From IMG/VR virus record IMGVR_UViG_3300043184_000020: DNA of 64,000 nucleotides. One strand, 5' to 3'. Origin of the DNA: a virus. Under the pieces are notes generated by a model. That model saw only the letters and a program-made list of their open reading frames with translations. It was not told where the DNA came from and made no database searches. Both the position numbers and the translations under genes were made by a program. The stretch's first letter is position 1, and every line of letters begins with the position of its first letter. Shown here one piece after another: positions 40-17,520 of the stretch.

Positions 40-1044
40 ATGAAACCCTTCTTCAAGCTACTGTTCGGATCACACCTCTACGGCACGAGCACTCCTGAGT
101 CTGATAAGGACTGGAAGCAGCTCTACGTCCCAAGCGCGAGGGAGATCGTGCTCGGAAGGTTTTCCAAGACCGTCCAGTCGGGAAGGAAGAAAGCTTCCTG
201 CGAGCGGAACACCAAGGACGACGTAGACGTTGAGACCTTCAGCCTGTGTAGATTCCTGGAACTCCTGATGGAAGGCCAGACCGTAGCGCTCGACATCCTG
301 TTCGGCTACCGGGTTACCGGACAGGTCAACGGAGCTGAAGGCTTCGAGATCATGGACGAGGTGTACGACAATCGTAGTCGACTGCTGACCCGAAACGTGA
401 ACGCCTTCGTAGGCTACGCCAGACAGCAAGCGGCTAAGTACGGCATCAAAGGCTCAAGACTCGACGCCCTAAAGCGCACGATGGAGATCCTGGACCAGCT
501 GCCGGAACGAGATAAGCTCTTCGACCACGTAGTCCCGATGACCGCACTGGTCGTAGCTACCAAGGAGCTGGTGTCGCTCGAGAAGAGCCCGCTGGTAGAG
601 ATCGTCATGCTCAAGGGTCCGGACAAGGTTACCCCGATGCCTCACCTTCAGGTGTGCGGTCGCAAGGTACCCTTCGGCTCGACCGTCAAGTTCGCAAAGC
701 AGGTCTTCGGCAAGATCCTTGAAGGTTACGGTCAACGAGCTAAGAAGGCCCACCTTGAGGGGGGGATAGACTGGAAGGCGCTCTCCCACGCGGTCAGGGT
801 GAACGAGGAGGCGCTCGAGCTTCTGACCACCCACCACATCACCTTTCCTAGACCCGAGGCCGAGCTTCTCAAGCAGATCAAGCTTGGTCAGCTTCCCTAC
901 GAGCAGGTTGCCACCATGATCGAGGAGGGACTTTTACGCTTGACTCAGGCCCACGAAAAGTCTACCCTCAGAGAAGAACCCGATCAGGAGTGGGCTGACG
1001 ACCTGATCTTCAAAGTCTACTCAAGAAAGGTAACCCAGACATGA
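40..1044 (+). CDS. Pol-beta-superfamily nucleotidyltransferase (RlaP/PF10127-like)
   Basis: 334-aa ORF; N-terminal LFGSHLYGTSTPESDKD fits the G-S...D-x-D minimal nucleotidyltransferase signature; GGAG about 9 nt upstream of ATG. Confidence 0.6.
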   Translation: MKPFFKLLFGSHLYGTSTPESDKDWKQLYVPSAREIVLGRFSKTVQSGRKKASCERNTKDDVDVETFSLCRFLELLMEGQTVALDILFGYRVTGQVNGAEGFEIMDEVYDNRSRLLTRNVNAFVGYARQQAAKYGIKGSRLDALKRTMEILDQLPERDKLFDHVVPMTALVVATKELVSLEKSPLVEIVMLKGPDKVTPMPHLQVCGRKVPFGSTVKFAKQVFGKILEGYGQRAKKAHLEGGIDWKALSHAVRVNEEALELLTTHHITFPRPEAELLKQIKLGQLPYEQVATMIEEGLLRLTQAHEKSTLREEPDQEWADDLIFKVYSRKVTQT

Positions 1045-1403
1045 AGCACGAAGAACTTACCAGAGCCTTTGAACTGATGTTTAAGGCCATCGGCCTGAGC
1101 GGAATGCAGCTTGAGGTTCGAGTTGACGCCTCCCGCTACGACCGAGTATCCGTAGGCCTGTTCACAAGCGTGCAGGTGAGCCCTTTAGACGCCCGTCCGT
1201 CTTTTGCGAAGTTTGAGGAAGAGCTACACAACAACGTATTGAACTCCCAGCTCGTAACTGGCGAGATCCAAGAATGGAAGGATAGGCTACAAGTCTCCCA
1301 GTCAAAGCGGGACGAGCTTGAGCGGGAGAATCAAGAACTCGAGAAGTACAAGACCCACTACGACCTCCAGTTCAACCTCCAGCACGGGAAGAAACCGACA
1401 TGA
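1041..1403 (+). CDS. hypothetical protein, C-terminal coiled coil
   Basis: ATGA overlap with upstream ORF; heptad-like KRDELERENQELEKYK segment. Confidence 0.5.
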   Translation: MKHEELTRAFELMFKAIGLSGMQLEVRVDASRYDRVSVGLFTSVQVSPLDARPSFAKFEEELHNNVLNSQLVTGEIQEWKDRLQVSQSKRDELERENQELEKYKTHYDLQFNLQHGKKPT

Positions 1404-1675
1404 CGGAGACCAAGATCAACTGGAAGAAGGTCAAGAGGGACGCGGACGAGTTTCAGCACATGCAGAAGGCCCACGTCGAGATCTTCGGACCCTGGCTCAA
1501 GGAGCGGGGGTGGGCTCAGTGGTACAACGAGCACGCCTGGTACAAAGAGCCCCTTAACGACACCTACTCCTGCGTCCCCGCCGACGTCGCGGTCATGCTC
1601 GAGCTTGGGCTCAAGAAGGTCCGGGGCTCTTTCTTAAACCAACCGGTCTTCGACAACAGAAGGGATGAAGCTTGA
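1400..1675 (+). CDS. hypothetical protein
   Basis: 4-nt overlap coupling with both neighbours in a + strand operon. Confidence 0.5.
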   Translation: MTETKINWKKVKRDADEFQHMQKAHVEIFGPWLKERGWAQWYNEHAWYKEPLNDTYSCVPADVAVMLELGLKKVRGSFLNQPVFDNRRDEA

Positions 1676-2109
1676 GCAAGCTCATCAGACTCCTCCGACG
1701 AGCCCACGCCATAGAGGTGGGAGCTTACCACGCCTACGAGGGACACTGGCGCTCCGTCAAACCTGTGAGCGATCCGGTCAGGGGTAAGATCAAGGACATC
1801 CAGATAGACGAGCTTATCCATCGGGAGAATCTGTTTCGGATGCTCTCAGAACTCAACTCCAAGCCCAGTCGCGCCCAGGACCTAATCCTGCTCCTCGTCG
1901 GAAAACTGGTATCTGCATCCTGTCGGATACTCCCACGGCGCTTGGCTGCCTACGGAGCTTACGTCATGGAGATCCTAGGAGACGTATGCTACGCCCAGCT
2001 CGCTCAGGTTGCGAGGGACGAGGGATATCCTGCCATGGCGGTCGAGCTTGACTACATGCAGCGGACCGAACAAGAACACAAGAGCTTCATGAAAGCTTTA
2101 TCAAAATAG
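1672..2109 (+). CDS. ferritin-like di-iron protein (COQ7/rubrerythrin-like fold)
   Basis: TTG start overlapping the upstream stop; two E-x-x-H motifs (DELIH, EQEH) plus EVGAY and MEILGD helices typical of four-helix-bundle di-iron proteins. Confidence 0.45.
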   Translation: MSKLIRLLRRAHAIEVGAYHAYEGHWRSVKPVSDPVRGKIKDIQIDELIHRENLFRMLSELNSKPSRAQDLILLLVGKLVSASCRILPRRLAAYGAYVMEILGDVCYAQLAQVARDEGYPAMAVELDYMQRTEQEHKSFMKALSK

Positions 2110-2569
2110 TCAACTAATATACCTAGAAACCTACACACATGACGACCCTACAGGGGGTAATAACCTGTTGACCAAACCCAAGCAACCTGGTAAGGTCGTA
2201 AGTGAGCCCTGGTCAGTACCGTAGCGTGAGGATAGTGTGGCGTAGCCAACGGTGTCACCTATCACCAGGCATGGTGTGAGAAAGGAAGTTCATCACCCAT
2301 GAAGCTCAAACCCGTCACCTGGGTATCGAAGTGGTGAGGCTGGCTGGCCTTGAAGGACGCAAGTTTGATACCGAGCCGTACTTGCCGTGAGTCCCCTACG
2401 ACAGTGGGGACACCCACCGCTAGATCACTATCACGCTTGCAGAAACATTACGCAGAGCGATCCCGAGCCCTCAGACCACCATAAACACCTAGTCCCGTCA
2501 AACACTTAGCCACGGGGCGTATAGAGCGTATAACGAAACATTACGCATGATGGGGTGGGGTTAATATAG

Positions 2570-2597
2570 TTGACTGGATTAGAGGGGGACTTATAAA
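2570..2597 (+). promoter_or_regulatory. sigma70-like promoter, TTGACT-N16-TATAAA
   Basis: Best -35/-10 match in the ORF-free region; fires into ORF-free sequence. Confidence 0.5.
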
Positions 2598-2805
2598 AAG
2601 GTCCCATGGTGTGGGAGGGAACTAGGTACCCTACATGGGGGGTCGGACACAGTGTCAGGGACTACCCCCCCGGCCTATCTATCGGATACCATTAGAGAAT
2701 AGGCCGCAAGCTTAGGCCTAACGCGGTCTAGGCTTGATAATGTATGTTATCGCGCCGGTTATCGGGTTAGACCATGCGTCTAGTTCAACGATTAATCCCA
2801 TACGT

Positions 2806-2820
2806 TGGCACGGATCTTGC
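2806..2820 (+). promoter_or_regulatory. sigma54-type -24/-12 element, TGGCACGgatcTTGC
   Basis: Exact match to TGGCACG-N4-TTGC. Confidence 0.45.
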
Positions 2821-2835
2821 GTGCGTCGGGATAGT

Positions 2836-2961
2836 CCCTAGGCTAACCCCCTAAACCCTAACCCCATACCCTTTCCAGTGATACCAATACCTTAACCCTT
2901 GCAAGCCTTAGCCCTAACCCTTTAAACCCCTAAACCCTAACGCCTAACCTATCGCTAACCC
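2836..2961 (+). repeat. unidirectional array of about 12 degenerate TAACCC/CCCTAA units
   Basis: ccctaggctaaccccctaaaccctaacccc...ccttaaccc...ccttagccctaaccctttaaacccctaaaccctaacgcctaacctatcgctaaccc. Confidence 0.8.
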
Positions 2962-2972
2962 ATGCTAGGCCT

Positions 2973-2988
2973 TGGCACGCTGTATGCA
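2973..2988 (+). promoter_or_regulatory. sigma54-type -24/-12 element, TGGCACGctgtATGCA
   Basis: GG and GC dinucleotides at the canonical 10-nt spacing. Confidence 0.4.
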
Positions 2989-3125
2989 TGCGTTATAGGT
3001 GTCTAAGCCTTTGACGCATGCCTATAAGTTGTGCAGCTGATATCCTTAGGGTTTTCCCGTTTTCGCCTATTCCCTTGACGCGTCCGTTATGACCCATCCT
3101 TGAAACCCTTAGGGAATATCCCGGC

Positions 3126-3308
3126 ATGACCCTTGCTTTCACTATATGCATGAAAGTCTATCAGATTGAACTTGAAAGCGGACGGGTCGAATTTATAAAG
3201 GCGTCAACTAGTACGCAAGCGGTCAAGGCGTTATGCGAGTCTATGCGCAAGCGTGGCCGTCCCGTATATATCAGGGTCAAGCGTATCAGCATGGTTAAGG
3301 GTTTTTGA
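3126..3308 (+). CDS. hypothetical protein
   Basis: 60-aa ORF, first ORF after the ORF-free region; weak RBS. Confidence 0.3.
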   Translation: MTLAFTICMKVYQIELESGRVEFIKASTSTQAVKALCESMRKRGRPVYIRVKRISMVKGF

Positions 3309-3317
3309 TAATAATAC

Positions 3318-3346
3318 TTGACGGGTTTAATAAGGCTTGATATCCT
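3318..3346 (+). promoter_or_regulatory. early promoter, TTGACG-N17-TATCCT
   Basis: Shared architecture AATACTTGAC...GGC(C)TTGATATCCTG with the promoter at 5598. Confidence 0.5.
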
Positions 3347-3367
3347 GTTAATGAAAGGTAGGACGTT

Positions 3368-3658
3368 ATGCGTAGATTTTTTTTGATGCGAAAGGTAGAC
3401 GTTTCCGGGACTAGCGGCGTGGGGGTCGTGGCCGAAGGGGTCGTATTTGATAACGGCAAGGCCGCCATGACTTGGCTTTCAGACGTCAAGTCGGTTACGT
3501 GTTTCGACCGCTTGACCGAAGTTATCAAGATTCACGGGCACGGCGGCGCGACGGTCATGGTACTGGAAGGCCGCAAGTCGGACGCGAAAGCTTTCGAGTC
3601 ATGCCTTGACGCGGTACGGGCACGAAAGGCCAAGGCTAAGCATGCGGGGGTCATATGA
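3368..3658 (+). CDS. hypothetical early protein
   Basis: GAAAGG RBS, preceded by TTGACG-N17-TATCCT promoter. Confidence 0.6.
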   Translation: MRRFFLMRKVDVSGTSGVGVVAEGVVFDNGKAAMTWLSDVKSVTCFDRLTEVIKIHGHGGATVMVLEGRKSDAKAFESCLDAVRARKAKAKHAGVI

Positions 3659-3885
3659 TCGACCGAAGGCGTCCCGAAGCGTATAGGCTAAGGGTTTATA
3701 TCGATGCGATTAAGGAAGTCGAAAGCATGACCGATGCGGCGTGGCTTGACCGGTACGTGCAAGCGGCCTTGATCAATCGCAATGCGGCATGGTTTCCGCG
3801 TTTCGCGTGGCTTGAATATCTTAAGGCTTGCGCCTTGCGTGAGTCTGAAAGCTTGCTAGCGGCGTCTGAAAGGGACGCGGCCTAG
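3655..3885 (+). CDS. hypothetical early protein
   Basis: ATGA overlap with upstream ORF. Confidence 0.55.
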   Translation: MIDRRRPEAYRLRVYIDAIKEVESMTDAAWLDRYVQAALINRNAAWFPRFAWLEYLKACALRESESLLAASERDAA

Positions 3886-3898
3886 GCAAAAAAACCCC

Positions 3899-3927
3899 TT
3901 GACGGGTCGACCGTCCGGGGATAACCT
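3899..3927 (+). promoter_or_regulatory. early promoter, TTGACG-N17-TAACCT
   Basis: Same spacing class; directly upstream of the conserved RBS block. Confidence 0.45.
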
Positions 3928-3952
3928 GAAAGGGAAAGGAAAGGGAAAACGT

Positions 3953-4414
3953 ATGGGATACACTCACTATTGGAACTTTGCGAAAGCGCCGAAGGGCAAG
4001 GCGTCGGAAACCGAAGCGGCCTATCAAGCGGCGTTAATTGAATGTCAAAGGATCGTCAAGGCCTATTATCGCGAAAACGGCGGCCTTTCAGGCTATACCG
4101 CGCACGCTAAAACCGGTCAATACGGCGGCCTTAACGTCAACGGTAAGGGGGACGATGCGCACGAAACTTTCGCGATGCGGGAACACTTCAGCGAAAACGA
4201 CGGTTTCGGTTTTTGTAAGACGGCGCGGAAACCCTATGACGTCGTCGTGACGGCATGCCTTGCCGTGCTAGCGTACCGCTTGCCGGGACTAGTCACGGTA
4301 TCAAGCGACGGACGGCCTAAAGACTGGACCGAAGGCGTGGCGCTTGCGCGAAAGGTGTTAAGGCGAAAGGTACCTAACCCGATCGGCGGCGAGTCTGAAG
4401 CTAAGGCCGCCTAA
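3953..4414 (+). CDS. hypothetical early protein
   Basis: ORF track starts at 3899, but the conserved GAAAGGGAAAAC-RTATG initiation region places the start at ATG 3953 (MGYTHYW...). Confidence 0.6.
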   Translation: MGYTHYWNFAKAPKGKASETEAAYQAALIECQRIVKAYYRENGGLSGYTAHAKTGQYGGLNVNGKGDDAHETFAMREHFSENDGFGFCKTARKPYDVVVTACLAVLAYRLPGLVTVSSDGRPKDWTEGVALARKVLRRKVPNPIGGESEAKAA

Positions 4415-4484
4415 GGTTTAGACGATCGTCTAAAAGTTATGCGCCGTTTTTGTCACGGCGCTAACGATATCAACGGGTTAAGCG

Positions 4485-4500
4485 TGGCACAGGCCTTGCT
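4485..4500 (+). promoter_or_regulatory. sigma54-type -24/-12 element, TGGCACAggccTTGCT
   Basis: Consensus match about 25 nt upstream of the ATG at 4526. Confidence 0.5.
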
Positions 4501-4525
4501 TGATCATAACTGAAAGGGAAAACAT

Positions 4526-4654
4526 ATGACTAACTTGATGATGACCGAAACCGTCCGAAACCTTGAGACCGTGTTAACCGTGACCTATGTCATCGTGACC
4601 ATATCCATGGGGGTCATGGTCGCGGGTATCGTGGCGAGTTTCAGAAAAGAATAG
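4526..4654 (+). CDS. small membrane protein (42 aa)
   Basis: Below the ORF-track cutoff; same 26-bp RBS and start block as the next gene; MTNLMMTETVRNLETVLTVTYVIVTISMGVMVAGIVASFRKE has one TM helix. Confidence 0.5.
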   Translation: MTNLMMTETVRNLETVLTVTYVIVTISMGVMVAGIVASFRKE

Positions 4655-4683
4655 TTGACTAAACGCATAGGCCTTGAGATCAT
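4655..4683 (+). promoter_or_regulatory. early promoter, TTGACT-N17-GATCAT
   Basis: TAGTTGACT...GGCCTTGA aligned with the other early promoters. Confidence 0.4.
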
Positions 4684-4727
4684 AAAACTAAGCCGGGGAT
4701 GATCCCGGCGCATGAAAGGGAAAACAT

Positions 4728-5543
4728 ATGACTAACTTAATCCTGAACACTAACCCGATCGAAGCGGTCAACCCCGCGTCTCACCTTAACCCCGAAACGT
4801 ACGGTTTCACGTCGACGCGTGAGATTCTAGACGCTTTCGCGGCGCATGGATGGACGCCGGTTTCGAAGCAAGTTGCACGCGTCCGAAACTCGGACCGCCA
4901 AGGGTTTCAAAAACACCTTATCCGACTTGAAAACCCCGCGTTTCAAGGTATCGAAGGCCTTTCGAGCGGTAACGCTTCCCGGCCTCAACTTGTAGTCCTA
5001 AACTCACATGACGGGTCGTCTAGCCTACAGATTTTTTGGGGGTTAGTCCGCATCGCGTGCCTTAACGGTATCATTGCGGGGTCGTCGCTTTCGAGTTTCC
5101 GCTTGATTCACTCTAAGCGAGTCACGGACCGCTTGCCCGAAGCGATAGAACACCTAGTCGGAAACTTCCCGGCCTTTATCAGTCAAGTTCAAAGCTTGCA
5201 AGGCCTCAAGTTTTCCGACGCGGCCTTGACCGAACTAGTCCGGACCGTGTACGATGCACGCTTGCAAGGCGTCGGGAAGGTGTTAGCGGTCGACTATTCC
5301 TTGCCTAACCTTGCACGCGCCGAAGATAACGCGACGGACGCCTTCACGGTTTTTAACCGTGTTCAGGAAGTTCTAATCCGTGGCGGTATCCGGTACCGCG
5401 CCGAAAGGAATAGGCTTGACGATAACGGGCAAGTTATCGAGACGCGCATCGTCGACGCTAAGACTCGAAAACTTTCGAGCGTCACGCAACAAGTCAATCT
5501 AAACCGTGTCGTGTATGACACGGCCTTGAAGCTTGCGGCCTAA
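4728..5543 (+). CDS. DUF932-family protein
   Basis: LNSHDGSSSLQIFWGLVRIACLNGIIAG resembles the NSHDGS...R.vC.NG core of DUF932 (PF06067) phage/plasmid proteins. Confidence 0.55.
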   Translation: MTNLILNTNPIEAVNPASHLNPETYGFTSTREILDAFAAHGWTPVSKQVARVRNSDRQGFQKHLIRLENPAFQGIEGLSSGNASRPQLVVLNSHDGSSSLQIFWGLVRIACLNGIIAGSSLSSFRLIHSKRVTDRLPEAIEHLVGNFPAFISQVQSLQGLKFSDAALTELVRTVYDARLQGVGKVLAVDYSLPNLARAEDNATDAFTVFNRVQEVLIRGGIRYRAERNRLDDNGQVIETRIVDAKTRKLSSVTQQVNLNRVVYDTALKLAA

Positions 5544-5597: not shown

Positions 5598-5626
5598 TTG
5601 ACTAGTTTTATAGGCCTTGATATCCT
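5598..5626 (+). promoter_or_regulatory. early promoter, TTGACT-N17-TATCCT
   Basis: Follows a terminator-like hairpin and precedes the RBS of ORF 5647. Confidence 0.5.
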
Positions 5627-5646
5627 GAAAGCGAAAGGGAAAACAT

Positions 5647-6363
5647 ATGCAAAAAATTATAGGTTTCGAAAACGCGAAAACTTCTAAGGGTACCGCGCAC
5701 GGGTACCTAACCGGTATCGTCTACCTTGCGCCGTATAACCTAAGCGGCGTCAACTTGTGCCCGAAGGCGTCTAAGGGATGCGCGGCGGCGTGCCTTTACA
5801 CGGCGGGTCGTGGCGCTTTCAAGTCGATTCAAGCGGCGCGTATGGCAAAAACTCAATGGTTTTTGAATGACCGCGCCGGTTTCGTCGATCAACTTAAGCG
5901 TGAGATTAAGGCCGCGCAAAAACGCGCCGCGAAACTAGGCCTTAAGCTTGCGATAAGACTCAACGGGACGTCGGATATCGTATGGGAAAGGATAACGGAC
6001 GTTATCCAAAGTTTTCCGGACGTGCAATTCTATGACTATACAAAAATCGCAAAGCGTTTCCTTTGGGACCGTCCCGCTAACTATGACTTGACGTTTTCCC
6101 TTTCAGAGGATAACGAAACGGACGCCGCTTTCGTGCTAGCGCGTGGCGGTCGGGTCGCGGCGGTTTTCCGTGACCGAAACTTTCCCGCGTCGTTCTTAGG
6201 CGTGCCCGTGGTATCAGGCGATGACCATGACTTGCGTTTCCTAGACGCGTCCGGGGTCGTTGTCGGACTATACGCGAAAGGCAAGGCGCGAAAGGATGCG
6301 TCGGGTTTCGTACGGGATACCGAAACCGCGAAAGGATGCGACGGCCTCAAGGCCGCCGCTTAA
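5647..6363 (+). CDS. conserved phage protein, possibly GP88 (PF17338)-like
   Basis: 238 aa; Cys-rich N-terminus (LCPKASKGCAAACLYTAGRG), NGTSD and YDYTK motifs recalled from that family; family assignment is from memory only. Confidence 0.4.
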   Translation: MQKIIGFENAKTSKGTAHGYLTGIVYLAPYNLSGVNLCPKASKGCAAACLYTAGRGAFKSIQAARMAKTQWFLNDRAGFVDQLKREIKAAQKRAAKLGLKLAIRLNGTSDIVWERITDVIQSFPDVQFYDYTKIAKRFLWDRPANYDLTFSLSEDNETDAAFVLARGGRVAAVFRDRNFPASFLGVPVVSGDDHDLRFLDASGVVVGLYAKGKARKDASGFVRDTETAKGCDGLKAAA

Positions 6364-7518: not shown

Positions 7519-7899
7519 ATGGGATACAAGAACTATGCCAGTCAAGAATCGTGCCAAGACGGGGACCGTGTCACGGAAGACGCACGTCAAGCCGGACATG
7601 GGTCCGATCCGACACGTGTCACCGATGACACAGGTCAACTTGGACGCGTGTCCGACGAGACACAGGACGCCTTTGCAATGCTCGTGCCAGCCCGAGATTT
7701 TAAGCTTGGCACGCGATATGCAGGGACTCCCGTCGGAGAGTTTCAGCGCGACGCGGACGGTCGCTATTGGTGGCGACGGGTAGACGGCTCTATCATGGAA
7801 GTTTTCCCCCATCCTTCGGCATTGTTCATGCCTTTGAAAGCGGGGGGATCGGTAGCGGACCCGTATCATGGAGAACTAGACACGCGGGGAGACGCCTAG
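7519..7899 (+). CDS. hypothetical protein
   Basis: GGAAAGGA RBS; preferred over the overlapping frame 7487..7783. Confidence 0.5.
   Translation: MGYKNYASQESCQDGDRVTEDARQAGHGSDPTRVTDDTGQLGRVSDETQDAFAMLVPARDFKLGTRYAGTPVGEFQRDADGRYWWRRVDGSIMEVFPHPSALFMPLKAGGSVADPYHGELDTRGDA
7707..7722 (+). promoter_or_regulatory. sigma54-type -24/-12 element, TGGCACGcgatATGCA (intragenic)
   Basis: Same motif inside ORF 7519..7899, upstream of the tandem 27-bp motifs. Confidence 0.3.
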
Positions 7900-8005
7900 C
7901 GTAGAGAATTCAGCACGCGGGGAGAATCACCCTATAGAGAACTCTGTAGGTGGGTAAGATCGGACACCCCACCCCCTATAGAGAACTTAACAAGCGGGGA
8001 GAATC
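7869..8005 (+). promoter_or_regulatory. four tandem copies of the 27-bp motif (T/G)(A/G)GAGAA(C/T)-N9-GGG(G/T)A(G/A)(A/G)(A/C)(T/G)C
   Basis: Copies at 7869-7895, 7902-7928, 7935-7961 and 7979-8005, each with a 9-nt spacer. Confidence 0.5.
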
Positions 8006-8015
8006 GAGGTTTCAC

Positions 8016-8222
8016 ATGTTTAAGAGTTTCCCATACCCTAACGCCACGCCTTCAAAGGTTCGCATGGTATACGACGCCGCACGACTCCTAGGCTATCCCG
8101 CGCCTTCCTACCTGAAAGCTCAGGAAGCGGCGCACAAGTTCACAGCTGAGGAACTCGAAAGGCTAGTCCGCATCGGTTCACGTCGAAAACTTGCGAGAAC
8201 ACGCTTGACCGTGGTCAAGTAG
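8016..8222 (+). CDS. hypothetical protein (68 aa)
   Basis: Track ORF 7950..8222 trimmed to ATG 8016, which lies 10 nt after the third tandem copy of the 27-bp motif. Confidence 0.5.
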   Translation: MFKSFPYPNATPSKVRMVYDAARLLGYPAPSYLKAQEAAHKFTAEELERLVRIGSRRKLARTRLTVVK

Positions 8223-8276
8223 TTTGATAAGGTGAGTCTATCCCCGAGACGTTCCCCCTAACGTCTCTCCCCCCGA

Positions 8277-8326
8277 CCCCTGAGAGGTTCCCCCCCCCCC
8301 CTTTCGCCTCTCGGGGGTTTTTTTTG
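8277..8326 (+). terminator. rho-independent terminator with C12 tract in the loop
   Basis: CCCCTGAGAGG ... CCTCTCGGGGG 11-bp stem (one G-T wobble) followed by T8; ends the early block. Confidence 0.65.
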
Positions 8327-8417
8327 TCCTTAGACTTACTGTCAAACATCTTTACAGCTGCTGAAAAGTTCGACGACATACCGACGACACGGCCTAAGGA
8401 TTTCAAATACTTACAGC

Positions 8418-8433
8418 TGGCACGGTCGATGCA
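8418..8433 (+). promoter_or_regulatory. sigma54-type -24/-12 element, TGGCACGgtcgATGCA
   Basis: In the intergenic region after a terminator, flanked by 16-bp direct repeats, upstream of ORF 8488 and rIIA. Confidence 0.45.
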
Positions 8434-8487
8434 TTAACTATCTGTAACGGCGACGACATACCGACGCCGCAAACGAAAGGACCGAAC

Positions 8488-8658
8488 ATGGGAAACAAGA
8501 TCAAAGGTTACGAGTGGGAAGGCATGAGTCTTGCAATGTACGCCGAGGGTAACACCTTCCGCGTGGTGTCGATCTGCGACGGTTTTCGTAGCGACAAGAT
8601 TTTTATTGACTACTCGGAAGCCTCAAGTTACTTTGATGGTGTACTCACGGGGAACTAA
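8488..8658 (+). CDS. hypothetical protein (56 aa)
   Basis: Below the track cutoff; GAAAGGA RBS; downstream of a sigma54-like promoter. Confidence 0.45.
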   Translation: MGNKIKGYEWEGMSLAMYAEGNTFRVVSICDGFRSDKIFIDYSEASSYFDGVLTGN

Positions 8659-8679
8659 TCCTAACGAAAGGGAAAGAAT

Positions 8680-10710
8680 ATGAGACTAGCACAGCACGCA
8701 AACAAGCTCGAAACTAACGTCCAGGTTGAAAGTCAAAACTTCGGAATCGGTGACGCATCGGTCGTCATCGAGATCTTGAGAAACCGACTCTATCAGCATA
8801 AGATTCGCACGCTCGTTCAAGAGTATATCTGTAACGCGAGGGATGCCCATAGAGAAGTTGACTCGCGGGAAAAATTGATCGTGACGGTACCTAACCGCTT
8901 GAATCCTATCTTTAAGGTTCGAGACTTCGGTCCTGGTATCTCTCCCGACCGCATGCGCGACGTGTTCATCATGTACGGCGCTAGCACTAAGCGCGGGACT
9001 AACAAGCAGACCGGCGGTTTCGGCATCGGTGCAAAGTCAGCATGGAGCTACACCGACTCTTTCACGATCGTGTCGATCACCGAAGGCAAGCGTCGCACCT
9101 ACGTGGCGCATACCGGAGTGAACAACAACGGACGCCTTGACCTCATCGAGACCGTCGACACGGACGAGCCTAACGGCACCGAGATTCAGGTTTCCGTCAA
9201 GCCTAGCGACCTCGAAGAGTTTAAGAACTCAGTGCTCCGAGCTATCCACTTCTGGCCTCAAAAACCTACGCTCAAGGGTTTGGTGGACGCTCCTACTGAC
9301 TCAGGCTTACAGCAAGGTCTGAGCCTTGAACTCGGAAAGCACTTCGAACTCGTGACCGGACTCCCATGGTACGTATCAGGTTCGAACTCATACAGCCGTG
9401 ACCTAATCGCGGTCATCGATGGAGTACCTTACGCTATCAATAGAGAACTTCGCGAGCGGGTAGCTTCGCTTGATGAACTCGCTACCTTGTGCCGTCAGCA
9501 CATGATCTTTCACGTAGGTAACGGACTCATCGAAGTTTCGGCGTCCCGTGAATCTATCGCGGACTCAAAGCAGACGATCGAAGCGCTTGACAAGCTTGCC
9601 TCTGCAGCTATCAAGGAAGTGAAAGCCTACGTCAAGGCCGAGTTTGACAAGGTGAGATCGGTTCACGATTTCATGGGTACGTATTCCCGACTAGAAAAGT
9701 ACGTTACGCTTGACGCGAGCCTCGCTGAGTTTCAAGGCTACAAGATCGAACGCGGAGCCATGAGTAACGCTACGCTTGAGCCTCACTACTTGAAGGAGAC
9801 CGTATCGCCTCAGTATCGCAGTAACTCGGTGGCCGACGGCGTGCGTCGTAACGACAAGACCTCGAAACCCTTCGCGCTTGCAGACTACGGAAACATCTAC
9901 TACGTCGACGTGGTGGAGTCTCGGGTCATCGAGAATCGTCGCCTACGCACTATCCTGGCAACGGCTCGAAACGGTTTCGTACTGATCAAGAAGCACGACA
10001 AGAGCGACCCTAAGCTTTGGAATCAGCTGATCACGGACCTCAACGCTATCCCGCTTTCAAGTGTTCAGATGACGAAAGCCGCTCCGGTTCAGCGAGTCGC
10101 TAAGGCCGTAACCGAGATCACGGTTCACATCCCACGGTCTAACAATCGCGAGACGGCGACCATCAACATAACTTCCAGCATGCACGACTACGTGTACGTG
10201 GAAACGCAAGCCGGTGAGTTTTTGGGATACCGACGCGAAGACCTCACAGATCTTGCCCGGTATCTCGATCAGCACCACGGCGTCAAGCTCGTAGGCTTGG
10301 CACCTTTGACGATCAAGAAGGTCCAAGGTCTGAGCAACTTCCAGTCTCTCGAAAGTTTCTGGAAGGCGTACAAGCCTGAGACTAAGGACCTACGCATCGC
10401 GAAGCGTACACTTTCGAAGAGCTTCGAGATCATGTCGGCTCTTAGTAAAGGTCCGAAGACGCGCTGTAAGTTCTTCTCAAAGATGCAGCTGGAGTATGCA
10501 GACATCGCAAGCTTTGCGAACGAGAGTACTCCTAAGATCATGATCAAGGTTCTTGAGAAGCTCGACGAGGTTAAAGACTTCGTAGAGAACGACTCCAAGC
10601 TCCAAGGTCAGATCGAAACTAAGTACAAGCTGCTCAAGATGTTTGACGCTTATAACCGATTCCGTGGAGATTCTGCAGAGTGGGTTGAATATATTAACGC
10701 TAAGTCCTAA
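8680..10710 (+). CDS. rIIA: rIIA-like protein (GHKL ATPase fold)
   Basis: N-box ICNARDA, G1 box VRDFGPGIS and G2 box GGFGIGAKS; 676 aa; directly upstream of an rIIB homolog. Confidence 0.75.
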   Translation: MRLAQHANKLETNVQVESQNFGIGDASVVIEILRNRLYQHKIRTLVQEYICNARDAHREVDSREKLIVTVPNRLNPIFKVRDFGPGISPDRMRDVFIMYGASTKRGTNKQTGGFGIGAKSAWSYTDSFTIVSITEGKRRTYVAHTGVNNNGRLDLIETVDTDEPNGTEIQVSVKPSDLEEFKNSVLRAIHFWPQKPTLKGLVDAPTDSGLQQGLSLELGKHFELVTGLPWYVSGSNSYSRDLIAVIDGVPYAINRELRERVASLDELATLCRQHMIFHVGNGLIEVSASRESIADSKQTIEALDKLASAAIKEVKAYVKAEFDKVRSVHDFMGTYSRLEKYVTLDASLAEFQGYKIERGAMSNATLEPHYLKETVSPQYRSNSVADGVRRNDKTSKPFALADYGNIYYVDVVESRVIENRRLRTILATARNGFVLIKKHDKSDPKLWNQLITDLNAIPLSSVQMTKAAPVQRVAKAVTEITVHIPRSNNRETATINITSSMHDYVYVETQAGEFLGYRREDLTDLARYLDQHHGVKLVGLAPLTIKKVQGLSNFQSLESFWKAYKPETKDLRIAKRTLSKSFEIMSALSKGPKTRCKFFSKMQLEYADIASFANESTPKIMIKVLEKLDEVKDFVENDSKLQGQIETKYKLLKMFDAYNRFRGDSAEWVEYINAKS

Positions 10711-10711
10711 A

Positions 10712-10738
10712 TAGAGAACGAAAGAAGAGGGTAAAATC
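10712..10738 (+). promoter_or_regulatory. 27-bp motif copy, TAGAGAAC-N9-GGGTAAAATC
   Basis: Ends immediately before the rIIB ATG. Confidence 0.45.
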
Positions 10739-11551
10739 ATGAACTACATCATCCTAAACGACTCGATGGTACTGAACTACGGCGGTAAGACGATCTCGAT
10801 CGCTAACACTGACGAACGATACACGAAGGTCATCGACCTGATTCGAGACAACAAGCTGGAAGAGATCCCAGCGGTCATCGAAGCGCAAGCCTTAGCCTTC
10901 AGCGGCGAAGGTGTGGAGCTGCGAGACGGAGTCATCGTGGTTGACGGCGTGGCTATCCCGCACGAGCTTTCCGATCGAGTGTTGAAGTTCCGTGAACAGA
11001 AGCTTCCCTTCGAACCACTTTTGAACTTCTGGCGTAACCTGAGGAAGAATCCTTCCTTTAACTCTCGTCAGATGCTCTACAAGTTTCTGGAGCATAACGG
11101 TCATCCGATCACTCCGGACGGCTGCTTCATCGCGTACCGTGGCATCCGAGACGACCTGAAGGACATGCACACCGGTACCTTTAACAACGCGCCTGGACAA
11201 GTGTGTGAGATTGCTCGCGATCAGGTTGATGACAATCCGAATAACACTTGCTCGCACGGTCTTCACGTGGCATGCTTCGACTACGCCAAGGGTTTTGGTC
11301 AGAAGCTCGTAGAGGTTAAAGTTAACCCTTCGGACGTGGTCGCGGTACCCACCGACTACAACGGCACCAAGATGCGGGTTTGCAAGTTCGAAGTTCTAAA
11401 CCTGATCGATAAGCCAAGAGCCGAAGAGCTTGCATCCGACGTGGAAGGTTCGGACTACATGACCGAGGACGAGGTTGACGAGCAGGAAGCTAACGACTGG
11501 GACAGCGAAGATGATTACCACAGCTGTGACTGTGAATTCTGCACGGAATAA
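10739..11551 (+). CDS. rIIB: rIIB-like protein
   Basis: NNTCSHGLHVA...VKVNPSDVVAVPTDYNGTKMRVCKFEV closely parallels the T4 rIIB C-terminus (TCSRGLHV...VKVHPRDVVSIPIDYNDAKMRTCQYEV). Confidence 0.85.
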   Translation: MNYIILNDSMVLNYGGKTISIANTDERYTKVIDLIRDNKLEEIPAVIEAQALAFSGEGVELRDGVIVVDGVAIPHELSDRVLKFREQKLPFEPLLNFWRNLRKNPSFNSRQMLYKFLEHNGHPITPDGCFIAYRGIRDDLKDMHTGTFNNAPGQVCEIARDQVDDNPNNTCSHGLHVACFDYAKGFGQKLVEVKVNPSDVVAVPTDYNGTKMRVCKFEVLNLIDKPRAEELASDVEGSDYMTEDEVDEQEANDWDSEDDYHSCDCEFCTE

Positions 11552-11566
11552 GAAAGGAAGAATGTT

Positions 11567-11902
11567 ATGAACGCTTTAAAAGTAAGAAGTTGCAAGCACT
11601 GCGGAGAGTCTAAACACATGCGAAAGCTTGTGGACGCTGAGTATGGAATCTTCAGTGAGCGATACTGGACCTGTTTCCAGTGTCATCCTGAGCTTGACTC
11701 GTCGGCTATCAACAACAGCGGTCAGAGTGGTGGACTCAAGGCGATGCGAAGCGAAGACGACGGTATGGGCGACGTATACTGCGACAGCTTTGATAAAGAT
11801 CTTGACGAGGAAGCTCAAGAAAAGTATGCTGATGAGGATACGGAGCTTGAACTCGAAGACGATACCGTAGAGAACTTTCAAGGTGGGGAGAATCATGGGT
11901 AG
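11567..11902 (+). CDS. zinc-ribbon protein with acidic tail
   Basis: CKHCG...CFQCH four-Cys ribbon; D/E-rich C-terminus. Confidence 0.5.
   Translation: MNALKVRSCKHCGESKHMRKLVDAEYGIFSERYWTCFQCHPELDSSAINNSGQSGGLKAMRSEDDGMGDVYCDSFDKDLDEEAQEKYADEDTELELEDDTVENFQGGENHG
11868..11894 (+). promoter_or_regulatory. 27-bp motif copy, TAGAGAAC-N9-GGGGAGAATC
   Basis: Ends immediately before the HNH endonuclease ATG. Confidence 0.5.
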
Positions 11903-12272
11903 AAGCGGAGACCTGAAGGCGGTGAACGACGACTTGATTCGTCAGCTGCTAGAAGATCCGCTCTACGAGGTGAGACCCGACGGTACAATCCTGACGCTGA
12001 AAACGGTTACTGGAAAGGTAAGTGCAAACAGTGTGTGGAGAAAAGCTGGCAGGTACGAGTCTAACGGTTACGTCCAGATATCGTATGCAGGTAAGCGGTT
12101 ACTAGCACACAGAATCGTATATCAGAAGTTTAAAGGAGGACTCAAGTGCGATTTAGTAGTTGACCACGGTAACGGAATAAGAGATGATAATAGGCCTGAG
12201 AACCTAAGTTTGGTTACAGCAAAGTCAAATCACTTCTACGTGAAGAGGAGAAAAAGCAATGAAAGTTCGTAG
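11895..12272 (+). CDS. HNH homing endonuclease
   Basis: LAHRIVY...VVDHGNGIRDDNRPENL (HNH_3-type motif); start moved to ATG 11895 directly after the 27-bp motif. Confidence 0.8.
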   Translation: MGRSGDLKAVNDDLIRQLLEDPLYEVRPDGTILTLKTVTGKVSANSVWRKAGRYESNGYVQISYAGKRLLAHRIVYQKFKGGLKCDLVVDHGNGIRDDNRPENLSLVTAKSNHFYVKRRKSNESS

Positions 12273-13155
12273 TTTGTATCTTATGGTGATGATCGCGGCC
12301 CTCGTGGGTTGTGGTCCTGATCGAGAAGTCGTTCAGGTTTACAAGGGAGATCCTGGTCAGAACGGGACGTCGTGTTCCGTAGGACCCGCCCTCGACGAAG
12401 AAACCTTCTCGGTGATTGGAGCAAAGATCTCGTGTACCGACGGTTCATCGTCGCTAGTACTGAACGGCGCTCAAGGCCCACAAGGCGTTCAAGGCCCTCA
12501 AGGTCAGCAGGGTATCCAAGGCCCGGTCGGTCAGACCGGCGCAGCTGGAGCGAGCTGTCAAGCGTATCGATCCATCCTCTTCTCAGGAGTATGGCTTGCA
12601 TGTCCTAACCAGTTTCCGGTCTTGATCAAAGACGGCGAAGATGGAGAAGACGGCGAAGATTGTAAGGTGAAACAGTTGTCTAACGGCGCACGCATCACAT
12701 GCGGAAGTTCAGTGGCCTACGTTTACAACGGACAAAACGGTCAGAACGGGACTTCATGCTCTATCAGCAACGCGACCGGAGGAGCGCAGATCACTTGCGG
12801 AAGCACGAGTCAGATGATCTACGACGGTCAGAACGGAGCTGTCGGACCAGTTGGCCCCCCCGGACCTCAAGGACAGCCTGGACAGAACGCACTTGCTAAC
12901 GCTATCGGAATCAAAGGCTACATCTATCCATGCGGTCAAGAGTTTGCAAACGATGAGATCTTCTTGCGACTCACGGACGGAAAGATTTTGGCTCTCTACG
13001 ATGGTGGACCTCACGAGGATCGATTGGCACTTCTCGCACCGGGTAACTACATCACGACGGACCGTAACAAGAACCAGGCTTGTCAGCTCACGGTTGACTC
13101 TAACCTTAACGTGACGTCTAACCCACCGACTACTGGTCTCGGGTTGAACAACTAA
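12259..13155 (+). CDS. lipoprotein with collagen-like G-X-Y repeats
   Basis: Lipobox ALVGC; GAQGPQGVQGPQGQQGIQGPVGQTGAAGAS and GQNGAVGPVGPPGPQGQPGQN tracts; internal (I/A)(S/T)CG repeats. Confidence 0.75.
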   Translation: MKVRSLYLMVMIAALVGCGPDREVVQVYKGDPGQNGTSCSVGPALDEETFSVIGAKISCTDGSSSLVLNGAQGPQGVQGPQGQQGIQGPVGQTGAAGASCQAYRSILFSGVWLACPNQFPVLIKDGEDGEDGEDCKVKQLSNGARITCGSSVAYVYNGQNGQNGTSCSISNATGGAQITCGSTSQMIYDGQNGAVGPVGPPGPQGQPGQNALANAIGIKGYIYPCGQEFANDEIFLRLTDGKILALYDGGPHEDRLALLAPGNYITTDRNKNQACQLTVDSNLNVTSNPPTTGLGLNN

Positions 13156-13160
13156 GGAGT

Positions 13161-13652
13161 ATGAACATGAAGTACCTAATCATTGCGATGCTTGTGAGTT
13201 TTGGAGCCCACGCAGCTGAGCCTGTGTGTAGCGAGGAGAACAGCCAAGAGGTGGCTACTGAGACGAAGGAGATCACTACCGACGTTCCAAGCCATCTTAA
13301 GGGAGCTACGATCATCGTTCGTACTGCGGACGGTCGTGAATCCTCGGTCCCAGCTGAGAAGTTCAAGGTCGTTCCTCGTAAGCAGCAGTTCATCGTGACT
13401 AAGACTGAGAAGGCTAAGGTCCTAAGCTGTACTACGAACGAGCCTAAGAAGAACCGAGTGGCCGTACTAGGCGGGCACGGTGCTCAAGGTGGTTTGAAGT
13501 CTAGTCAGTCGGGGTCGACCGTTGAAGTTGAGTCCAAGACCGGGGCTGTAGGCGGATTACAGTACCAGCGAATGCTGAACGACACGTTGTCGATTGGTGT
13601 TCAAGGTCAGACTAACAAGACAGGATCACTGCTCATCGGCATCGACTTCTAA
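13161..13652 (+). CDS. secreted protein, possible small outer-membrane beta-barrel
   Basis: Signal peptide ...SFGAHA-AEP; Gly/Ser-rich alternating C-terminal half ending in a terminal Phe (LLIGIDF). Confidence 0.5.
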   Translation: MNMKYLIIAMLVSFGAHAAEPVCSEENSQEVATETKEITTDVPSHLKGATIIVRTADGRESSVPAEKFKVVPRKQQFIVTKTEKAKVLSCTTNEPKKNRVAVLGGHGAQGGLKSSQSGSTVEVESKTGAVGGLQYQRMLNDTLSIGVQGQTNKTGSLLIGIDF

Positions 13653-13715
13653 CAAAGTTCCTTGGTGGACCAAACGTCAGGCTGGCGTGACAGGCGGGGA
13701 GAGACCCGCACCTAA

Positions 13716-13742
13716 TAGAGAACTTTACAAGAGGGGAGAATC
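13716..13742 (+). promoter_or_regulatory. 27-bp motif copy, TAGAGAAC-N9-GGGGAGAATC
   Basis: Ends 2 nt before the lipoprotein ATG at 13745. Confidence 0.5.
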
Positions 13743-13744
13743 GA

Positions 13745-13984
13745 ATGAGACTCTTTTTACTAGCTTCTGTACTGCTAATGACAACGGGTTGTGGTGACAT
13801 CAAAGTTACGCAGCCGAAAGACTTCGTAGTGAAGCATCAGGTAGATCTTGAGAACTTGGAAGTCTACTTCCGAAAGCTCTGCGAAGAGGAGTTGTCTCAA
13901 GACGGAACGTACGAACCCACTGCGCTTGAAGTAGATACCTGTGTTGACGTTAAGATCGCAGAGTTCTTAGACGCGATCACTTAG
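13745..13984 (+). CDS. small lipoprotein
   Basis: Lipobox LMTTGC; start 2 nt after the 27-bp motif. Confidence 0.6.
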   Translation: MRLFLLASVLLMTTGCGDIKVTQPKDFVVKHQVDLENLEVYFRKLCEEELSQDGTYEPTALEVDTCVDVKIAEFLDAIT

Positions 13985-14174
13985 ACTGATTGACGAAGGT
14001 CTTCAGCTCGTTGACGAACTGTAGGCCTTCCTTTTCAAGACGATCCAAAACTCTAACACCTTTGGTCTTAGAGTCTAGAAACTTCTCTACGTCCCTAAGC
14101 GCCAAACCTTCTGACGCTAGGAAGTGGACAAGCTGTGTGAGGGCTATCTCGAAGTCACTCAGCTCCCTGTTCAT
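13977..14174 (-). CDS. hypothetical protein
   Basis: Last ORF of the long minus-strand block; its 3' end overlaps the convergent + strand ORF by 8 nt. Confidence 0.4.
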   Translation of the reverse strand: MNRELSDFEIALTQLVHFLASEGLALRDVEKFLDSKTKGVRVLDRLEKEGLQFVNELKTFVNQSK

Positions 14175-14979
14175 CCTGTGGCGCTTCTTCTTGCTGAATA
14201 GGCTCGTAAGGTTTTACAGGAGCTTCGACGTCTACGAAGAACTTAACGTACTGCTGAGGAACTAAGACCCCGTAGTGTAGTTCTCTAGATCCGGAAGCGA
14301 AGACTAGACCAGCGATATGACCTTCTGAGTCAAAAACCGCAGAGCCTGAGTTACCTGGTAGTACCAGAGCGGAGGTGTGTTGAGAGTCGTACTTCTTGGT
14401 TACAGGAAAGCCGAAAAGACACTGAAATCCGTGCTCTTCAAACTCTTCTTTGGTGCATGGACGAACGTCAACTACGATCTCAACTTCCATTCGATCACCA
14501 AAGGTGCCCCTAGAAACCGTGTGAGGGTAGAGTCTAGGATGTCCAGAGATGATAGCAGCATCTCCGAACTCGGGTGCCTTCTTGGAAACTTCAGTGCGGA
14601 TCTTCAGGTTTTCTTTGATCTTAACCAAGCAGAGATCATGCTGCTCAGACTTCTTAAGTGCGATGACTTTATGCTTACCCTTGCGAGAGACGACTACGCC
14701 ACCCTTCTCAGCAACCTCACAGACGTGTCGGTTGGTCAGGATCTCAGAGCCAGTCTCGTCGGAGTTGAGGATAACTCCGCTACCTCCACCGTTCTCCTTC
14801 AGGTTCATGATCTTGACGGAAGTCTCCGCAAGCTCCTGAGTCGTGGTAGGTTCGATAAGCTTGGTGCTCACTGCTTGGTGATAGGTCCCAAGACCCAGCG
14901 CAAGCACGATAGCGACCATGGAAGCACGAACGGCCCTACGACCGGGTTTCAGTTTGGAGGCCAACTTTTTTAAACTCAT
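14155..14979 (-). CDS. membrane-anchored trypsin-like (S1) serine protease
   Basis: N-terminal signal anchor; TNRHV (His), HDLCLV (Asp) and GNSGSAVF (Ser) triad context; no PDZ domain. Confidence 0.75.
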   Translation of the reverse strand: MSLKKLASKLKPGRRAVRASMVAIVLALGLGTYHQAVSTKLIEPTTTQELAETSVKIMNLKENGGGSGVILNSDETGSEILTNRHVCEVAEKGGVVVSRKGKHKVIALKKSEQHDLCLVKIKENLKIRTEVSKKAPEFGDAAIISGHPRLYPHTVSRGTFGDRMEVEIVVDVRPCTKEEFEEHGFQCLFGFPVTKKYDSQHTSALVLPGNSGSAVFDSEGHIAGLVFASGSRELHYGVLVPQQYVKFFVDVEAPVKPYEPIQQEEAPQDEQGAE

Positions 14980-17275: not shown

Positions 17276-17520
17276 GAGACCTCCGATTAAGTGTACGGGC
17301 AGGGCGCTACTCCTACTCCAGTCGTTAACTGGGGGCATTAACGCCTGACTTACGCCCGACGTTGCACCGCGTGTCTCCAGTAGCTTAGGTCGCCCATCAT
17401 GAACCGATTGCATGACATTCACGACTACGGTCCCATTCAGCACCAAGGCAATCTCGGATGCGCCACTACAGCTTTCCACGCCGCCGTACATTATGAGGTT
17501 AGCAATTTAGATGATTAAGG

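Follow-up and report, generated by a model that had tools for sequence, protein, structure and literature searches.

The described phage signals that come closest to the element analysed here, a 27-bp motif repeated in a 64,000-nt stretch of viral DNA (IMG/VR record IMGVR_UViG_3300043184_000020; the whole stretch is hereafter called the window), are those of phages T7 and T4. T7-type promoters span positions -17 to +6 and carry GGGAGA from +1. T4 late promoters (TATAAATA), which are read with the help of gp55/gp33 and the gp45 clamp, have a short element at the -10 position, no -35 element and a ribosome-binding site (RBS) nearby. At the RNA level, T4 RegA acts on the rIIB mRNA; RegA operators are short, AU-rich and poorly conserved, and they and the RegB sites overlap the Shine-Dalgarno sequence or the AUG of several pre-replicative mRNAs, including that of rIIB. 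RegB cleaves GGAG in Shine-Dalgarno sequences, and in T4 middle promoters a distance of 12 +/- 1 bp separates the MotA box from the -10 element (PMC2988021). The PeSL cassettes of T4-type phages, each a sigma70 early promoter with a stem-loop, are conserved repeats that flank variable small genes in a plastic early region (PMC2839356, PMC4122927), where they mediate gene shuffling (PMC4122927).

The motif of the window works most like a phage class-specific promoter, although it belongs with neither the T7-type, the T4 late or the T4 middle promoters nor the PeSLs. We tentatively favour the reading that it is a lineage-specific promoter joined to a leader/RBS cassette, read by a putative specificity factor and serving a small regulon. 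It most likely switches on a few early or middle genes.

A 27-bp motif at four loci

A first-pass annotation of the window had described the motif, TAGAGAAC-N9-GGGGAGAATC, as an element of fixed architecture, and a mismatch search, shuffling and a scan with a position weight matrix (PWM) bear this out. At up to three mismatches, the pattern has 8 matches in the window, all on the + strand, against 0.12 expected, and none of 100 shuffles reached 8; the match at 9441 was absent from the earlier list. Because the exact copies number only three (7979, 11868 and 13716), the sequence as first noted represents a consensus. The PWM, built from 11 good sites, found six strong sites in the window (34-41 bits; shuffle maximum 13.4) and three weak ones (7869, 8850 and 9441). 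The copies and the genes around them are as follows.

7869..7895, + strand: degenerate array copy 1, TGGAGAAC-N9-GGGGAGACGC, inside the 3' end of an open reading frame (ORF; 7519-7899); three mismatches, 18.2 bits
7902..7928, + strand: array copy 2, TAGAGAAT-N9-GGGGAGAATC, with no start codon after it; one mismatch, 37.0 bits
7935..7961, + strand: array copy 3, TAGAGAAC-N9-GGGTAAGATC, with no start codon after it; three mismatches, 34.3 bits
7979..8005, + strand: array copy 4, exact consensus, 10 nt 5' of the orf68 ATG; 40.5 bits
8016..8222, + strand: orf68, the gene behind the array
8245..8325, + strand: intrinsic terminator with two strong hairpins and a T8 run after the second, closing the array-orf68 unit
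8680-10710: rIIA
8850..8876, + strand: weak look-alike inside rIIA; 20.2 bits
9441..9467, + strand: weak look-alike inside rIIA; three mismatches, 22.3 bits
10712..10738, + strand: single copy filling the rIIA/rIIB gap, TAGAGAAC-N9-GGGTAAAATC, adjoined by the rIIB ATG; two mismatches, 34.0 bits
10739-11551: rIIB
11868..11894, + strand: single exact copy in the 3' end of orf111, adjoined by the ATG of an HNH endonuclease gene (11895-12272); 38.8 bits
13716..13742, + strand: single exact copy, 2 nt 5' of the ATG of a 79-aa lipoprotein gene (13745-13984), the last + strand gene; 40.9 bits

The motif is one-directional: it is strictly co-oriented with the genes and lies directly 5' of gene starts. 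The distances from its end to the ATG (10 nt for orf68, 0 for rIIB and HNH, 2 for the lipoprotein) are those given by the first-pass annotation, which had also placed the copy at 11868 correctly within the end of the preceding ORF, where it falls inside the last 11 codons of orf111. Its description of stacked copies directly before one small gene likewise stands, with a strong terminator following orf68. The four tandem copies that it counted there comprise three good ones; the first, at 7869, is degenerate.

Over its 27 bp, the consensus TAGAGAAy-T..a.a.G.-GGGkArAATC holds ~36 bits, and its degenerate 27-nt form can be written TAGAGAA-N8-GNGGGNANAATC. The fixed bases of the right block are GGG (18-20), A22 and AATC (24-27), to which an invariant G at spacer position 16 can be added; the spacer (positions 9-17) otherwise carries 0.2-1.2 bits per position, with a semi-conserved A at position 14, 6-7 nt past TAGAGAA. 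As the earlier description had it, the left half has no -35 partner: no conserved -35 or upstream box was recognised near the copies, and none lies 15-22 bp from TAGAGA. Along the array, successive copies are 33, 33 and 44 bp apart, each distance being a multiple of 11 bp. In the middle copy of the array, the left block and its own spacer form a dyad (CTATAGAG-AA-CTCTGTAG, window 7931-7952), with a counterpart in a relative described below (L002 9270-9291, TATAGA-GAAT-TCTATA); the other copies have no dyad.

The phage is an uncultured tailed phage of a lineage with genomes of roughly 130 kb. An identical Logan contig provided 27 kb upstream of the window, so that ~91 kb were examined in total, and the remaining ~40 kb of the genome lie outside them. 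The motif is real, and scans of the ~91 kb showed that it is no genome-wide promoter class: the strong copies are confined to 7869-13742, with no other copy in the ~91 kb, and they mark four loci within 6 kb, none of them before structural genes. These 6 kb are the last part of a rightward gene block, which in window coordinates begins near -23 kb and ends near +14 kb.

The two look-alikes inside rIIA share a reading frame, and both fall on R-E-(V/L) codons written AGA GAA, with a faint echo in L002 at only one of them. The match at 9441 overlies the rIIA codons R-E-L-x-E-R-V and is probably coding-driven, since the weak look-alike of L002 (9.9 bits) falls on the homologous rIIA codons. We treat both as probable by-products of the coding sequence; 9441 is not counted as functional, and the status of 8850 is uncertain.

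Conservation of the motif and the starts of translation

One relative shares the motif: L002, a 32.6-kb JGI contig, whose rIIA is 55% identical to that of the window phage and whose coding DNA is ~72% identical. The orthologous copies are the following.

Array before the orf68 homologue: window 7902, 7935 and 7979; L002 9241, 9274 and 9318
Copy in the rIIA/rIIB gap: window 10712; L002 11997
Copy at the end of orf111: window 11868; L002 13299

The array of L002 thus holds three copies, and the degenerate copy at 7869 has no counterpart there. The spacing of 33 + 44 bp is identical in the two phages, and the 111 bp of the array align with zero indels, whereas most other non-coding DNA is unalignable or gapped. 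Both phages also have the same arrangement of array, small gene (the orf68 homologue is L002 9361-9576) and strong intrinsic terminator; in the window phage, the latter includes the hairpin 8301-8317 with its T-run, and the two-hairpin region as a whole (8245-8325) has a folding energy of -38.7 kcal/mol (z = -4.6). The gene that follows the orthologous copy at the end of orf111 differs: it is the HNH gene in the window phage and a 28-codon hydrophobic ORF in L002 (13327-13413). This fits a portable expression signal and suggests that a free-standing homing endonuclease was inserted behind an existing one at the orf111 end.

Beyond L002, the motif is absent from 80 metagenomic rIIA loci and from the further relatives L083, L234 and L235. 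IMG/VR holds no exact match, the degenerate pattern giving single chance matches only, and a literature search for the motif sequence returned only unrelated primers.

The first-pass annotation had proposed that the right half also serves as the Shine-Dalgarno sequence. In five of the 11 strong copies of the two phages, all gene-proximal, an ATG does follow 0-3 nt past the end of the motif. The right half is nevertheless not merely an RBS, since the array copies that have no start codon keep it equally well, and the GGAG bases vary while AATC and A22 are fixed. The rIIB ATG that abuts the motif is a real start, because the N-terminus MNY.. is kept in three phages; transcription can therefore start only 5' of the right block, which is what the first-pass model requires. 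In right blocks without GGAG (T at position 21), spacer bases together with GGG restore GAGG or GGAGG, as seen at 10712, L002 11997 and L002 13299. It follows that the translated mRNA has to include the motif sequence starting at roughly position 15. This is consistent with a start in the spacer near A14 and also with read-through transcripts.

Readings of the motif

In the promoter reading that we tentatively favour, TAGAGAA (positions 1-7) would be the recognition element of a '-10-only' promoter with no -35, used by the host RNA polymerase together with a putative specificity factor. Transcription would start in the spacer, around A14. The right block (G16, GGG18-20, A22 and AATC24-27) would then make up a purine-rich leader close to the 5' end of the transcript, and this leader would act as the ribosome-binding region wherever an ATG follows 0-3 nt on. 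Three or four stacked cassettes would drive orf68 in a unit closed by the strong terminator; rIIB-orf111, HNH-collagen-like lipoprotein-orf163 and the last lipoprotein gene would each have their expression restarted or raised by a single cassette. The conserved array-gene-terminator unit and the strict co-orientation favour an expression signal over a scar. A promoter-type reading had already been put forward in the first pass, and the motif does act like an expression signal in its co-orientation, its position at gene starts, its orthologous conservation and its lack of a -35; the accompanying expectation of a sigma or RNA polymerase gene is not borne out in the ~91 kb.

Pfam and PHROGs scans and precomputed Pfam lists revealed no sigma factor, gp55/gp33 or single-subunit RNA polymerase in the ~91 kb, in which many ORFs have no known relatives. 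The same Pfam/PHROGs scans found no homologue of MotA, AsiA, RegA or RegB, and a PDB sequence search found no sigma factor or RNA polymerase. A 210-aa protein without known relatives was considered as a sigma factor and rejected: its predicted structure is of low confidence, alpha/beta and not sigma-like.

Several points weigh against the promoter reading. Besides the missing sigma, gp55/gp33-like or phage RNA polymerase gene, conservation that would extend to about +14 of the transcript is unusual for a promoter of bacterial RNA polymerase. The right-block pattern [G/T]-A-n-A-A-T, in which the A at its second position and the final T are close to fixed, resembles a -10 hexamer more than a Shine-Dalgarno sequence. 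The array spacing in multiples of 11 bp hints at an array of DNA-bound protein and not at independent promoters, and a regulon of four loci is very small. Finally, there is no strong terminator in 8418-13984 apart from the one after orf68, so that read-through from promoters farther 5' could also serve all the motif-linked genes.

The likeness to T4 late promoters suggested in the first pass does not extend beyond the short -10-position element, the missing -35 and the nearby RBS. The left block TAGAGAAC matches TATAAATA at 4 of 8 positions, and no gp55, gp33 or clamp homologue was found among the scanned proteins, although ORFs without relatives remain. Unlike T4 late promoters, the motif does not precede the virion genes, which lie on the - strand with sigma70-type or extended -10 sequences, and its conserved 12-nt downstream block has no T4 counterpart. 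As no sigma or RNA polymerase gene was found, membership in the T4 late class is unsupported, and so is membership in the T7-like class.

A bolder form of the promoter reading, which we regard as distinctly unlikely, takes the motif for a new bipartite element: an undescribed phage factor among the ORFs without relatives, possibly orf68, would redirect the host RNA polymerase, while the downstream half doubles as a ribosome-binding leader. The result would be a self-contained 27-bp 'transcribe-and-translate' cassette, usable by mobile genes such as HNH and standing beside sigma70- and sigma54-type promoters.

Unlikely, though to be taken seriously, is an element that acts in RNA: an mRNA operator with a logic like that of T4 RegA, a processing site or a 5'-proximal ribosome-binding 'stabiliser', with the array serving as an autoregulatory or decoy element. 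Like RegA operators and RegB sites, some copies of the motif overlap the Shine-Dalgarno/AUG region of a gene, rIIB among them; a real ATG begins 0-3 nt past the end of five of the 11 strong copies, no copy is on the non-coding strand, and the genes are within reach of read-through. That overlap holds for five copies and not for the five or six array copies, which are without start codons. Array copies 1-3 sit 33-110 nt from the orf68 RBS, and even the last leaves uncovered the Shine-Dalgarno sequence that orf68 has of its own (GAGG, 8006-8009). It is not obvious what the strict, indel-free 33/44 spacing would mean in RNA. RegA sites differ from the motif in being short, AU-rich and poorly conserved, the GGAG that RegB would cleave is not conserved in the motif, and no homologue of either regulator was detected. 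A structured RNA was ruled out: the array RNA folds no better than shuffles (z = -0.6 and -1.2), RNAalifold predicts zero base pairs on 11 copies, and Rfam and tRNA scans gave no matches.

More doubtful still is a set of DNA operators for a phage transcription factor, possibly orf68, with a cooperative autoregulatory array and single sites at three gene starts. The spacings in multiples of 11 bp, exact in L002, would suit such a protein, as would the small regulon, which is typical for a specific regulator. The orf68 product is predicted with confidence (pLDDT 88.7) as a three-helix bundle with a basic C-terminal helix, and it bears a weak, non-significant resemblance to helix-turn-helix regulators. 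No family or significant fold match was found for it (structure matches E > 1), and a homologue search returned only orf68 itself, so that no homologue is detectable beyond L002. As an operator, the site is long and is neither a dyad nor a true direct repeat; the strict co-orientation with genes and the abutment on ATGs are not expected of operators, and no recognisable promoter lies beside the single sites.

A sigma70 promoter that, as in the T4 middle (MotA/AsiA) class, depends on an activator is a reading that we consider very doubtful. It would have TAGAGAAC as an activator box in place of the -35, GGG-[G/T]A[n]AAT as an extended -10 and a start ~7 nt past T26. The geometry of an 8-bp box (positions 1-8), 12 bp and a hexamer (21-26) is that of MotA promoters. 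In the hexamer, A2 is invariant and T6 is present in 12 of 13 copies (7869 loses it), and the variability of positions 1 and 3 matches that of genuine -10 elements. One of the genes behind the motif, rIIB, is a classic middle gene in T4; sigma70-type promoters are clearly in use elsewhere in the phage; and with the 33-bp array spacing, a transcript predicted from one copy would begin just before the next copy. At all five gene-proximal copies, however, the ATG follows the hexamer by 1-4 nt, and the predicted start (~position 33) would fall 2-5 nt past its A; the rIIB start among them is verified. Behind 13716, the copy with the highest score, lies the last + strand gene, so that such a transcript would encode nothing. 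The box is unrelated to TGCTT, and MotA and AsiA homologues were not detected. A promoter of the ECF type (GAAC-N17-TC) was rejected because it would place the start past verified start codons, and so, for the same reason, was a -10 role for the right block.

It is improbable that the motif has no regulatory role and is a duplicated RBS-containing junction, spread by recombination as a PeSL-like cassette scar and kept only as a Shine-Dalgarno sequence. The window (GAAAGGGAAAACATATG) and L009 (TTGAAAGGA) do show that the family has other RBS-linked repeats, and the motif resembles PeSLs in being a repeated conserved cassette among variable small genes of a plastic region, with gene content that changes downstream of an orthologous copy. 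Unlike PeSLs, it has neither a stem-loop nor a -35/-10 pair. Moreover, the left half and AATC are kept at every orthologous copy at ~72% DNA identity while the Shine-Dalgarno bases vary, and the array copies without start codons are conserved in both sequence and spacing.

A single-subunit (T7-like) RNA polymerase promoter, the other likeness drawn in the first pass, in which TAGAGAAC and N9 would form -17 to -1 and GGGGAGA would be initially transcribed, is highly improbable: the motif shares the length, high information content and single orientation of T7-type promoters, contains, after exactly 17 nt, a G-run and AGA similar to the T7 +1 sequence, and is stacked at a 33-bp distance tight enough to suit a small-footprint polymerase, but no gene for such a polymerase was found in the ~91 kb, positions -9 to -1 are variable with no TATA at -4 to -1, the tiny regulon of four loci in 6 kb includes nothing before structural or replication genes or on their strand, and a start at G18 would cut off the spacer-built GAGG/GGAGG in three copies.

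Genome setting and other regulatory signals

No sequenced phage is a near relative of the window phage, whose portal shares 37-38% identity with the portals of SPO1-like phages. The window also encodes a terminase, a family A DNA polymerase, a primase-helicase, GroEL and baseplate proteins. The sequence upstream of the window adds genes for a tyrosine recombinase (L233 11485-12387), an Rrf2-family regulator (13025-13414) and a PagL-like lipid A deacylase (13868-14347). Other products of the phage are a class II ribonucleotide reductase, dUTPase and ThyX. The lipid A deacylase suggests a Gram-negative host. The ~40-kb remainder of the genome is bordered by baseplate/tail genes at the window end and, where L233 ends on the far side, by genes of the same strand that lack annotation, and on account of these flanks it probably consists mostly of tail genes.

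Sites of the sigma54 -24/-12 type (TGGCACG-N4-TTGCA) occur five times in the window at up to one mismatch, against 0.13 expected.

2806-2821, 2973-2988, 7707-7722 and 8418-8433, + strand: sigma54-type sites
7674-7689, - strand: sigma54-type site
L002 9753, L083 9796, L234 about 9070 and L235 4065: sigma54-type sites in relatives

The site at 8418-8433 lies just after the orf68 terminator and before orf56-rIIA. Within this interval (8324-8487, orf68 terminator to orf56), two copies of a direct repeat, CGACGACATACCGACG, flank the sigma54-like site. A sigma54-type site is found upstream of rIIA in 9 of 68 loci scanned and in none on the opposite strand; it lies 41-66 nt upstream of rIIA in the metagenomic loci L003, L005, L007, L008, L009 and L063 and in L234, and L083 and L235 carry a similar site upstream of rIIA. 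No sigma54 activator gene was seen, and a literature search returned no paper on sigma54 promoter use by a lytic phage. These conserved sites may be a more unusual trait of the lineage than the 27-bp motif.

In other respects, the phage seems to rely largely on the host sigma70 polymerase. Early promoters of the sigma70 type, TTGAC(T/G)-N17-(ggccTTGa)TATCCT/GATCAT (including TTGACT-N17-TATCCT), are found at 3318-3346, 4655-4683 and 5598-5626, and the near-identical leader GAAAGGGAAAACATATG, which follows such promoters, at 3928-3957, 4512-4528, 4714-4730, 5633-5649 and 8666-8682. Virion and replication genes on the - strand start behind either (A)nCTTGACC-N17-TAnnnT promoters (gene starts at 17491, 30912, 40973 and 52142) or extended -10 sequences (TGGTATAAT/TGGTATTAT/TGGTAAAAT; gene starts at 20359, 45372 and 56902). 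Most + strand genes have a GAAAGG-type RBS, and - strand genes have AAGGAG.

A region of ~1 kb without ORFs (window 2110-3125) contains short telomere-like CCCTAA(A)C repeats (2835-2960), two sigma54-like sites and C-rich runs, and L002 has a comparable gap at 3506-4681. This region could be an origin, a terminus or a site of non-coding RNA genes. In L083, ~20 tandem small genes (290-4620, - strand) each contain TGGAG(C/T)TGG, encoding the peptide W-S-W; this repeat marks a paralogous gene family in the early region and is not a regulatory motif.

The practical impact of the motif is limited, as two genomes carry it, at four loci per genome. A 27-bp unit that holds the signals for both transcription and translation start would, if it is one, be a handy part for synthetic biology. 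If the motif is a promoter, it represents a new recognition sequence and implies a new specificity factor in an uncultured lineage that carries rII genes and an SPO1-like portal, and it would explain how accessory genes, such as those of the HNH endonuclease and the lipoproteins, are expressed after their insertion.

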